Virus record (IMG/VR): IMGVR_UViG_3300029415_000001
Reading direction: 5' to 3' (one strand)
Length of the DNA stretch: 64,000 bases
From: a virus
Lineage: Duplodnaviria > Heunggongvirae > Uroviricota > Caudoviricetes
Numbering within the stretch: position 1 is the stretch's first letter; every line of letters begins with the position of its first letter. Positions 1,843 to 5,001 of this stretch are shown piece after piece. The notes beneath the pieces are model-generated. The model was not told the DNA's origin. It saw only the letters and a program-made list of their open reading frames with translations, and searched no databases. Both the position numbers and the translations under genes were made by a program.

Positions 1843-2740
1843 GCACTGGAAAAACATTACTATTTATAAACTTTCTCGTGAGGCGGATCTGACCGACTTA
1901 GAAGATAAAAAGAAAATGATCCTTTTCACGCCATGCGGTAGTCAGGATATGGCCAAGTTCGGTTTTGTATCTCCATTTGGTGATAATTCCGAAGTTATCG
2001 CTATGCATGGAAATGGTTTTATCCTTGTTGAAGCAAAGCGCGAAACAAAAATTCTTCCCCCGCCGGTTATCCAGCGAGCTATTCAAGAAAAAATTGAAAA
2101 ACTTGAGCAAGAACAAGCGCGTAAACTGAAGAAAACAGAGAAGGACTCCCTGAAAGACGAAGTTCTGCATTCTCTTCTGCCACGGGCTTTTTCAAAGTTT
2201 TCTGTTATCCAGGCGATCTACGACGGTTCAACTAAACGTATCTATATCAATGCCAGCGCGCGGCAGGCAGAGGATATGCTCGCGCTTATGCGTAAGTCTC
2301 TGGGTTCTCTTCCTGTTGTTCCCCTGAGTGTTGAAAATCCCATTGAATTAACGCTGACCGACTGGGTACGTGATGGTAGTGCTCCACAGGGATTTCAAAT
2401 GGGGGATGCGGCAGAACTTAAGGCAGTGCTTGAGGATGGCGGTATTGCCCGAGTGAAAAAGCAGGATTTGGGAAGCGATGAAATTTCCACACACCTGGAA
2501 GCTGGCAAGCTCGTTACTAAGTTGGCACTCGACTGGCAGAACCGCATTAAATTTACACTGGACCATAACTTCAGCCTTACCAGCGTCAAATTTGCGGATG
2601 AATTGCTTGAGCAGAACTCTGATATTGATAGTGAAGATGTTGCGCAGCGACTGGACGCAGATTTCTTCCTGTTGACCAGTGAAATTTCGTGCCTGGTTGA
2701 TGCTCTGGTAAATGCCCTTGGTGGAGAGGCTAAGCAGTGA
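1835..2740 (+). CDS. rdgC: RdgC-like recombination-associated protein (P1 hrdC-type)
   Basis: Translation from ATG 1835 ([16 protein letters not shown]...[14 protein letters not shown]...[21 protein letters not shown]) is collinear with E. coli RdgC along its whole length. Confidence 0.85.
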
Positions 2741-5001
2741 AAGAGCTGTGCTATGGATCTGTTTGCAGTGGAATTGAAGCCGCGAGTATTGCCTGGGAAC
2801 CGTTGGGTATGCGTCCGGCGTGGTTTGCTGAAATCGAGCCTTTTCCATCTGCCGTTCTTGCGCACCGCTGGCCCCATGTCGCCAACCTTGGCGACATGAC
2901 AAAACTTGCCAAAAAAGTCCTGGCTGGGGAAATCGAATCCCCTGATGTGCTCGTCGGGGGTACGCCTTGTCAGGCATTCAGTATCGCGGGCTTACGTGGT
3001 GGGCTTGATGATGAACGCGGCGCGCTAACTTTGAAGTATGTGGAGCTTGCAAATGCAATTGACGACAAACGGTCTGAGTCCTTCCTCAAACCGACAGTTA
3101 TCGTCTGGGAAAATGTCCCAGGAGTCCTGTCATCGGCAGATAACGCCTTCGGATGTTTCCTTGCCGGATTGGCTGGAGAAGATGCGCCATTTGAACCAGG
3201 TGATCGACCTGAATCAGGAAAAAGTAACGCGTTCTGGCGGTGGGATGGCAAAACCGGTTGCCATGCTCCAAAGTGGCCGCAGTGTGGTTGTATTTATGGA
3301 CCGCAGCGAAAGGTGGCCTGGAGAATCCTTGATGCCCAATACTTCGGAGTGGCACAACGACGCCGACGCGTGTTTGTTGTCGCAAGTGCTCGAACAGACC
3401 TCGATCCCGCAACGGTACTTTTTGAGTTCGAAGGCGTGCGCCGGAATATTGCGCCGAGCCGAAAAAAGAAGGAAATCGCTTCCGCCATTATTGCAAATGG
3501 CGCTGCAATCAGTGGCGAAAGCCTAAATCCATGCCTACATGCTGACATGCCACCCGGTATGAAATCGACGAAAGCCGTAAACGCTTTCAGGATGGCAGCA
3601 TTTGGGGAATATATTGACGATGAAACCGCATCGACAGTAAAGGCAAGAGATTTTAAAGATGCCACTGACCTTGCCGTTTTTAGCAGCACAGGAGCAGGTT
3701 TTTGGTCAGAAGGGCATGGTACATTGCGGGCACGAGAGCAAGAAAGCCATGAGCATCTTGTTACATTGGCTTTTCCTGAGCGTATGAGCGGTACACAACA
3801 TGCTGCAACTAAGAATACTTCACCATCTCTAATGGCTAAAAATCCAACAGCTGTTTGCTATGAAGTAAGAAACGCAGAAGTAGCTGTCCGCCGTCTTACC
3901 CCTGTCGAATGTGAAAGGCTGCAAGGTTTTCCTGATGGGCATACGTTGATCCCGACGGAAAAGCGTAAAAAAGTTAATTCAGATGAACTGGCATATCTTC
4001 GCAATCACTATCCAGATTTAAGCGAAGAAGAGGCCGCGATGCTTGCAGCTGACGGACCGCGTTACAAAGCGATCGGCAATAGTATGGCAATACCAGTAAT
4101 GCGCTGGATTGGCGATCGGATTACTAAGGCCGTATGTCGGCAGAAAGAAGGAAGTGAAACAAAAGAGCGAAAAGTTAAACCAGCGGCAGAATTCGAACGG
4201 TCCATATTCAAATGGGCTGGTGGAAAATTTGGTGTTCTGGAACAAATCTTTCGCTATTTGCCAGAAGGGAAGCGCCTGATCGAACCTTTTGTCGGTGGCG
4301 GAGCTGTCTTCACGAATGCCGGATACCAGGAAAATCTGCTAAATGATGTGAATGCTGACCTGATTAACTTTTACAAGACTCTGCAACGCGAGGCGCATTC
4401 ACTTATCACACTGGCGCATCGTTTCTTCCAGGACTACAACACACAGGAAGGATACCTGGCAGTACGGAATGCGTTTAACAAACAAGTCTATGATGATTTA
4501 CATCGCGCAGCGGCGTTTTTGTTCCTGAACCGACATTGTTTTAACGGATTGACGCGTTACAACCAGGCCGGTGAGTTCAATGTCGGTTACGGGAAGTATA
4601 AAACTCCGTATTTCCCATTACAGGAGATGGAAGCCTTCCTCGGTGCGGAAGGGCGGTCTGAGTTTGTATGCGGTGATTTTGCAGCGGTGATTGAAGCTGC
4701 CGGAGAAGGAGATGTCATCTTTTGCGATCCGCCGTATGAACCGCTTCCAAATACAGAGGGATTCACGAACTATTCCGGTCATGACTTTAAGTTTGAAGAG
4801 CAAAAACGCCTGGTGTCTCTGTTGACGGATGCTCATCGTCGAGGTGCAAAGGTTCTCATTACTAACAGTGGCGCGCCAAACATCAGAGAGCTTTATCATG
4901 ACAGTGGCTTCAGAGTGGAACCTCTTTTTGCCAGACGTTCTGTGTCTTGTAAGGGGGACACTCGAGGTGTAGCTCATGACGTTTTGGGTATATTGCTCTA
5001 A
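2737..5001 (+). CDS. dmt: bifunctional DNA methyltransferase: N-terminal C5-cytosine MTase domain fused to C-terminal Dam-like N6-adenine MTase domain (P1 Dmt-like)
   Basis: 754 aa. N-term: [12 protein letters not shown] (PCQ motif IV), IVWENVPG (ENV), [18 protein letters not shown]-term: [11 protein letters not shown] and DPPY motifs typical of Dam-family MTases. GTG start overlaps rdgC stop. Confidence 0.85.

Follow-up and report, generated by a model that had tools for sequence, protein, structure and literature searches.

The dmt gene of bacteriophage P1, formerly named dam, was sequenced in 1988 and annotated in the P1 genome in 2004; the descriptions are reportedly those of Coulby and Sternberg (1988) and of Lobocka and co-workers (2004). 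In the passages of PMC12707154 that cite Sternberg & Coulby 1990, methylation of GATC at the packaging site pac is stated to be needed for the proper packaging of P1, and dmt to be essential in dam- hosts. Here, we analyzed a 64,000-nucleotide stretch (the window) of the IMG/VR virus record IMGVR_UViG_3300029415_000001, in which the open reading frame (ORF) at positions 2737 to 5001 is the dmt orthologue of a P1-like (Punavirus) phage-plasmid, intact and ordinary. Its product is very probably one polypeptide composed of two independent S-adenosylmethionine (AdoMet)-dependent methyltransferase domains, a GATC Dam and a presumed protective orphan cytosine-5 (C5) enzyme. As dmt has been sequenced and annotated for so long, its presence here is the correct re-identification of an already known gene and nothing new by itself. 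The value lies in a sound annotation, and what interest is left concerns what the C5 half does, and at which target, in the methylase of so well known a phage.

In the ORF listing of the window, dmt is a single + strand ORF of 754 residues with a GTG start codon, and a GGAGAGG ribosome-binding site was found 8 nt upstream of this start. The original prediction, made from the sequence of the window, described one polypeptide in which a full C5 motif set is followed by a Dam-like domain, and every motif that it named was recovered in the 2737..5001 frame. The halves of the protein and their motifs are the following.

2737..5001, + strand: dmt, bifunctional DNA methyltransferase (C5-cytosine and Dam-type N6-adenine), from the ORF, the profiles and the P1 alignment
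2737..4131, + strand: C5-cytosine methyltransferase half, residues 1-465, motifs I-X, from Pfam/TIGRFAM and the motif map
Residues 10-15, + strand: C5 motif I CSGIEA, from the motif map
2956-2982, + strand: C5 motif IV GGTPCQAFS, residues 74-82, with the catalytic Cys78, from the motif map
3106-3123, + strand: C5 motif ENV in WENVPG, residues 124-129, from the motif map
From 3355, + strand: C5 motif QRRRR, residues 207-211 (QRRRRVF, residues 207-213), from the motif map
Residues 385-399, + strand: C5 motif IX, from the motif map
4075-4098, + strand: C5 motif GNSMAIPV, residues 447-454, from the motif map
4132..4200, + strand: charged inter-domain linker, residues 466-488 (23 residues, in frame), lying between the Pfam/TIGRFAM envelopes
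4201..4998, + strand: Dam-family (D12 class) N6-adenine methyltransferase half, residues 489-754, from TIGR00571 and the E. coli Dam alignment
4210-4227, + strand: Dam motif KWAGGK, residues 492-497, from the motif map
4726-4737, + strand: Dam catalytic motif DPPY, residues 664-667, from the motif map

Motifs II, III and V of the C5 set were likewise located in the dmt frame by the motif map, as was, besides KWAGGK and DPPY, the AdoMet-binding motif of the Dam half. The whole set is far beyond chance. The profile scores are in agreement with these assignments, since Dmt reached 126 bits with PF00145 and 191.5 bits with PF02086 in Pfam (cut-off of 22 for each), and 117.3 bits with TIGR00675 dcm (cut-off 100.65) and 247.8 bits with TIGR00571 dam (cut-off 114.85) in NCBIfam.

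The dmt gene of the window was compared with annotated phage records by megablast. It is 99.8% identical to P1 dmt (AF234172, 66412..68676) across all 2265 nt and 97-99.7% identical, at the nucleotide level, to the dmt genes of 17 other P1-like phages. Positions 1-5927 of the window align to P1 at 99.7%, and the P1 annotation (AF234172) was carried onto the window via this alignment with an offset of 1264. At the protein level, 751 of the 754 residues are identical to those of P1 Dmt (AAQ14041) in an alignment without gaps. Together with the common operon context, this supports the kinship with Dmt of P1 that had been proposed. The order of the domains, C5 and then N6, had been flagged for checking against the published enzyme, and the alignment with P1 Dmt was named as the means; both proteins have 754 residues, they align gap-free, and the deposited P1 Dmt also carries its C5 domain at the N-terminus and its Dam domain at the C-terminus. 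The GenBank note for a second sequenced P1 strain makes this order explicit with the words 'region of aa 8-132 similar to C5-cytosine specific DNA...'.

The joining of the two domains is not peculiar to this stretch. An intact single fusion ORF is found in P1, P7, SJ46, RCS47 and JL22, and dmt occurs in 498 PLSDB plasmid records, 467 of them at 80% coverage or more. Nearly all of these carriers are non-mobilizable Escherichia replicons, those listed measuring about 88-132 kb with one co-integrate of 455 kb, and they are P1-like phage-plasmids. Thousands of member sequences are present in a large protein collection. When the C5 half alone was used in a sensitive search, 11 of the top 150 cluster representatives also had a C-terminal Dam domain, some of them being only 53-69% identical. 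On an 85-kb contig, the gene of one such distant fusion homologue (P0129) immediately follows an rdgC gene that overlaps it, and this gene pair is at positions 5081-8349 of the extracted locus. Among P1-like alleles, both halves are under purifying selection, the ratio of nonsynonymous to synonymous substitution rates (dN/dS) being 0.07-0.58 in the C5 core and 0.01-0.11 in the Dam half, although with few substitutions to count. Furthermore, the fusion has been kept despite the exchange of a variable cassette, of an intein and of the Dam module.

Two explanations would deprive the gene of this meaning. The original prediction had named as its refutation an artificial fusion of two genes generated by a frameshift; in the explanation considered here, two adjacent genes would have been joined by a frameshift or an assembly error in this stretch. 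Such an explanation could appeal to the Vibrio phages CP-T1 and VpaJT_1, in which a C5 gene and an amino-methylase gene stand unfused with 4-nt overlaps, and to two phage records (ON470615 and ON470617) in which the annotation breaks dmt up into two or three ORFs. However, the Vibrio partner genes are N6_N4_Mtase and MT-A70 genes and not Dam, and the two split records differ from the window by single-A deletions, with rdgC also split, a pattern typical of sequencing error. Independent sequences of P1, of JL22 and of hundreds of plasmids are collinear with the ORF of the window and show no gap against it, its domains are joined by the in-frame linker of 23 residues, and distant fusions have a matching architecture. 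The artificial fusion is thus extremely improbable, and it was rejected on the alignments with P1 and hundreds of plasmids and on the distant fusions. The other explanation makes dmt the modification half of a nearby restriction-modification (R-M) or other defence system, and is very improbable as well. P1 does carry EcoP1I (res/mod), an R-M system of Type III, and defence genes are frequent on phage-plasmids. Nevertheless, EcoP1I has its own Mod subunit, which recognises AGACC, and is located tens of kb from dmt on the P1 map, whereas dmt is under C1 control together with replication and recombination genes. The genes flanking dmt are upfB, upfC, uhr and hrdC (the rdgC gene) upstream, and tRNA-Asn, tRNA-Thr, plp, upl, an SPFH gene, a third tRNA and ban downstream; no nuclease gene was found within about 5 kb on either side from the ORFs, the P1 annotation and Pfam. 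In agreement with the original prediction, which had noted no cognate endonuclease nearby, membership of dmt in an R-M or defence system was therefore rejected and Dmt was considered as an orphan enzyme.

A separate Dam product was also looked for in the gene. The in-frame starts M435, M450 and M455 have no convincing Shine-Dalgarno sequence, and a generic promoter scan found no + strand promoter inside dmt. The P7 record annotates a 'predicted late promoter LPdam2'.

The Dam half aligns end to end with the E. coli Dam structures 2G1P/4GBE (E = 8e-57). According to Horton and co-workers (2006), E. coli Dam reportedly contacts GATC via K9, Y119, N120, L122, R124, P134 and Y138. Of these residues, K9, N120, L122, R124 and Y138 are kept in the alignment as K492, N603, L605, R607 and Y621, and two contact positions are altered (Y119 to F602 and P134 to G617). 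The substrate of this domain was located in the window.

30356..30542, no strand assigned: P1 pac packaging site, documented Dam substrate, from the GATC cluster

In this site, TGATCA occurs at 30356, 30363, 30375 and 30390 and, after a spacer of about 100 bp, at 30498 and 30509, followed by TGATCG at 30537. With 7 sites in about 185 bp, pac is the densest GATC cluster of the window, in which GATC is otherwise at expectation (250 observed vs 249 expected). The role in packaging that the original prediction had put forward is in line with the pac GATC methylation given in the cited passages of PMC12707154. The Dam domain would methylate the adenine of GATC, including all seven pac hexamers, an activity published for P1 and transferred here at 99.6% identity. 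Full methylation of pac would then render the phage independent of the host Dam. The window hence represents a P1-like phage-plasmid with an intact, wild-type-like, C1-regulated dmt gene and the matching pac substrate.

Concerning the C5 half, the catalytic residues P77, C78, Q79, E125, N126, V127, Q207, R208, R209 and R211 are invariant across 60 homologues (48-63% identical). In the AlphaFold model, made with a 60-sequence alignment, the local confidence score (pLDDT) of the C5 core is above 90 in most blocks, and the top Foldseek matches of this model are M.HhaI, M.HaeIII and DNMT1/3A, with a probability of 1.00 and a target-normalised template modeling (TM) score of about 0.6. Because the catalytic residues are kept, the core is confidently modelled and the structural matches are C5 methylases, we expect the C5 half to be active as a cytosine-5 methylase, with the replicating DNA of the phage as its substrate. 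Most likely, it adds 5-methylcytosine (5mC) at one or more short targets, which would be set by an exchangeable variable region, and 5mC would protect the virion-bound DNA from Type II restriction in the next host. We thus infer an anti-restriction role for Dmt, for which literature searches found no demonstration.

Several observations weigh against the reading of Dmt as a GATC Dam joined to a protective C5 enzyme. Motif I is CSGIE, a variant conserved across the Dmt C5 family, instead of the textbook FxGxG. No published account of a C5 activity (5mC) of Dmt was found in literature searches, and the P1 GenBank note is itself guarded, with 'perhaps at C5 cytosine'. For the variable region, a PDB sequence search gave no match even at E ≤ 10, residues 233-377 have a pLDDT below 50, and one of its blocks (block b) aligns weakly, over 15 residues, to the core TLSARYYKDGAEILI of the target-recognising domain (TRD) of E. 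coli Dcm, a score that 1.6% of shuffles reach. For these three reasons, the target of the C5 half is not derivable from the variable region; the PDB search, AlphaFold and the Dcm comparison gave none, and no target is proposed. As to the Dam half, Dmt missed the cut-off of the E. coli Dam equivalog NF008152 (242.8 vs 441 bits). This half is a Dam-family enzyme and not the chromosomal Dam equivalog, so that its GATC specificity rests on the P1 experiments and on the conserved contacts.

In a rival reading, Dmt would work only as a Dam and its C5 half would be dead or vestigial, perhaps kept for folding or DNA binding. The silence of the literature and the 'perhaps' of the P1 annotation speak for it. 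So does residue 74 of motif IV, a nearly invariant glycine (G74) that is a tryptophan in the sequenced laboratory P1 strains without evident damage to the phage. On the other hand, every C5 catalytic motif is intact in the window and matches the family-invariant residues, dN/dS of the C5 core is well below 1, and G74 is kept in 120 of 120 close homologues. In addition, natural alleles swap the variable region and keep the core, as expected from selection on target specificity. We consequently regard a dead C5 half as improbable, and prefer the two-domain enzyme with an active C5 half.

A further proposal refines this two-domain reading. The region between motifs VIII and IX, in which target recognition is placed, comprises the following elements.

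3463..3888, + strand: variable (target-recognition) region between motifs VIII and IX, residues 243-384, P1-type cassette, replaced in the P7, SJ46, P0091 and P0030 alleles
Within 3463..3888, + strand: TRD-core-like motifs TVKAR at residue 300, TLRAR at residue 329 and SLMAK at residue 364, from the motif map

At least four types of motif VIII-IX cassettes were distinguished, with 148 residues in the window and P1, 66 in P7, 104 in P0091 and 240-256 in the group of SJ46 and P0030. The longer cassettes are composites of blocks found in the shorter ones, and alleles of 807-862 residues mix P1-, P7- and SJ46-type blocks. The C5 half might accordingly be multispecific, with two or three tandem TRDs, one per sequence, as in the enzymes of SPR and phi3T. 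Besides the composite longer alleles and the alignment of block b to the Dcm core, this idea has in its favour the three T(V/L)/SL-x-A-(R/K) motifs, spaced by 29-35 residues, and the blocks around them, b (residues 286-316), c (317-345) and d (346-384), which occur singly among the 150 representatives (28 have b by itself, 11 have c and 11 have d). Moreover, the distance from motif VIII to motif IX ranges from 96 to 447 residues in the family, and TL-like motifs become more numerous as it grows (r = 0.35). The support is sequence pattern throughout, however, and a single mosaic TRD would yield similar patterns; the correlation with length is weak and the structure model gives no information here. 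The block boundaries were picked by eye, the matches come from short-query BLAST, and the blocks measure 29-39 residues, shorter than the TRDs of the Bacillus phage enzymes, which are of about 40-50 residues. Multispecificity is therefore a possible but rather unlikely refinement. If it holds, one Dmt enzyme would protect against several restriction systems. The rapid modular exchange seen in natural C5 alleles suggests selection by host restriction systems.

Across P1-like elements, dmt appears as a mosaic, and the cassettes are not its only exchangeable part. RCS47, OP279344 and, among the 120 closest homologues, 16 have an insertion of 341 residues between GGTP and the catalytic Cys of CQAFS. 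This insertion starts with Cys, ends with His-Asn and matches Pfam Hint_2 and LAGLIDADG_3, and is therefore an intein in the active-site motif. The same GGTP/CQ site is also occupied in six more distant representatives. In the window, GGTPCQA is uninterrupted at 2956-2982 and dmt has no intein. Literature searches found no paper on the dmt intein or on the variable-region cassettes. The named intein alleles are the following.

RCS47, locus positions 1501-4788: dmt allele of 1095 residues with intein
OP279344 (P1 del res del mod), locus positions 1501-4542: dmt allele of 1013 residues with intein

A second exchange concerns the Dam module. In P0004 and about 85 other homologues of 762 residues, the C5 half is virtually identical to that of the window, whereas the linker and the Dam half (compared with window positions 4100-5001) are roughly 65-70% identical by inspection of the alignment. 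The drop in identity falls at the linker, which marks the module boundary. This points to an exchange of the Dam module at a recombination breakpoint between the domains, with the fusion kept, and to two Dam-module variants.

Finally, the window differs from reference P1 at three residues of Dmt, having G74, S241 and G274 where P1 has W74, R241 and S274. Two of these positions are strongly conserved.

Codon 74, window position 2956, + strand: compared with laboratory P1 strains
Codon 274, window position 3556, + strand: compared with laboratory P1 strains

At position 74, 58 of the 60 diverse homologues have G and 2 have A, and the 120 close homologues have G without exception; at position 274, each of the 50 sequences with a residue there has G. 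W74 is confined to two sequenced laboratory P1 c1.100 strains, and S274 is found in the reference AF234172, whereas G stands at both positions in the window and in all other alleles. The window thus seems to carry the ancestral G74/G274 allele, and one may speculate that the laboratory P1 allele has an impaired C5 domain. To our knowledge, the laboratory P1 c1.100 strains are the only ones studied biochemically. Put together, these features would make the C5 half an active, multispecific anti-restriction methylase with shuffled modules, an optional intein and alternative Dam modules; the window allele would presumably be active, and W74 in the laboratory strains, together with S274 in the reference AF234172, would perhaps be the reason why the activity is undocumented. 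This fuller picture is tentative, and taken as a whole we judge it unlikely. The laboratory reference allele may also represent the natural enzyme poorly, a point of relevance to P1-based tools and to the understanding of the host range of resistance-carrying P1-like plasmids.

The dmt gene is the last gene of the uhr-hrdC-dmt operon, whose elements and borders were identified as follows.

1470..1486, + strand: C1 repressor operator Odmt (formerly Op68), ATTGCTCTAATAAATAT, with 1 mismatch to the consensus, from the operator search and the P1 annotation
1486..1515, + strand: sigma-70 promoter Pdmt (-35 TTGTTT, -10 TACCAT) for uhr-hrdC-dmt, position transferred from AF234172
1558..1842, + strand: uhr, 94 residues, first gene of the operon, from the ORF and the P1 annotation
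1835..2740, + strand: hrdC, RdgC-family recombination-associated protein (Pfam RdgC, 328 bits)
4992..5019, no strand assigned: divalent C1 operator Oban a/b (formerly Op72ab), from the operator search and the annotation

Pdmt was missed by the generic promoter scan, and no Pfam family was matched by uhr. The TGA stop codon of hrdC overlaps the GTG start codon of dmt (GTGA). The two Oban sites are at 4992-5008 on the + strand, with 0 mismatches, and at 5003-5019 on the - strand, with 2 mismatches; the TAA stop codon of dmt falls within the perfect C1 operator ATTGCTCTAATAAATTT. C1 operators therefore bracket the uhr-hrdC-dmt operon, in a window where 17 C1-operator-like sites were observed vs 0.27 expected. 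Owing to these operators, the C1-repressed dmt would be silent in the lysogen and expressed only after infection or induction.

Other features of the window and of the public records were recorded. At 6723-7818, a small membrane ORF (6756-6992) and an SPFH/Band_7 gene (6973-7800) take the place of the reference P1 genes tciA-tciB-tciC, a variant that is also present in RCS47 and vB_EcoM-813R1. At 5928-6093, between tRNA-Thr and plp, about 166 nt have no counterpart in the alignment with reference P1. An Rfam scan of positions 1300-8200 returned three tRNAs and, in the intergenic area between upl/plp and the SPFH gene (6602-6722, + strand), a sub-threshold match to STnc100 (37.8 bits vs a gathering score of 47, E = 1.2e-5), and nothing else. 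In the P1 'dicF-like' region (about 5116-5217), the Rfam scan gave no DicF match at E ≤ 0.01; a terminator-like hairpin lies within this region at 5179-5201. As regards the databases, some NCBI records (P0031 and P0048) misname Dmt as 'multidrug DMT transporter permease', a name that evidently stems from the gene symbol, and the fragmentation of dmt and rdgC via single-base deletions in the public records ON470615 and ON470617 should be regarded as annotation errors.

Compared with known systems, the closest relative is P1 Dmt (AAQ14041), which shares with the window protein its length of 754 residues, the domain order, the GTG overlapping hrdC, the operators and the flanking tRNAs, and differs at residues 74, 241 and 274 only. 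P7 Dam (AAQ07538, 672 residues) and the Dmt of Salmonella phage SJ46 (807 residues) occupy the orthologous position and share the C5 core, the linker and the Dam half, being 90-97% identical outside the variable region. Their cassettes (66 residues in P7 and about 240 in SJ46, against 148 here) are different, so their cytosine target specificity presumably differs from that of the window enzyme. RCS47 has the P1-type variable cassette as in the window, but bears the intein.

With E. coli Dam and the Dam/DpnM family, the Dam half has in common the alpha-class motif order, KWAGGK, FxGxG and DPPY. Unlike E. coli Dam, it is the C-terminal domain of a larger protein, is phage-encoded and C1-regulated, and carries F602 and G617. 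The monospecific bacterial enzymes M.HhaI and M.HaeIII (PF00145) share with the C5 half the fold and the catalytic motifs I-X. The identity to them is 15-19%, motif I is CSGIE, and the VI-VIII and IX-X inserts are longer in Dmt, which, unlike these enzymes, has no partner endonuclease and has a variable region without sequence relative in the PDB.

The multispecific C5 methyltransferases of SPR, phi3T and rho11s were reportedly described by the Trautner and Noyer-Weidner laboratories. Like Dmt, they are orphan C5 enzymes of phages whose variable region is modular and recombines, and self-protection is their proposed function; unlike Dmt, they have no fused Dam domain and belong to a different sequence family. 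Multispecific C5 methylases of Bacillus phages are also mentioned in PMC12707154. In the Vibrio phages, the C5 gene belongs to the Dmt family (44-45% identity) and is followed by the separate, 4-nt-overlapping amino-methylase gene described above.

CP-T1, extracted locus 1998-3997: C5 and amino-methylase gene pair
VpaJT_1, extracted locus 1998-3988: C5 and amino-methylase gene pair

Whereas the Vibrio partner is of the N6_N4_Mtase (beta class) or MT-A70 type, that of P1 is a fused Dam. The pair formed by a C5 and an N6 methylase thus appears to be a recurrent phage module, of which P1 and the window carry the fused version.

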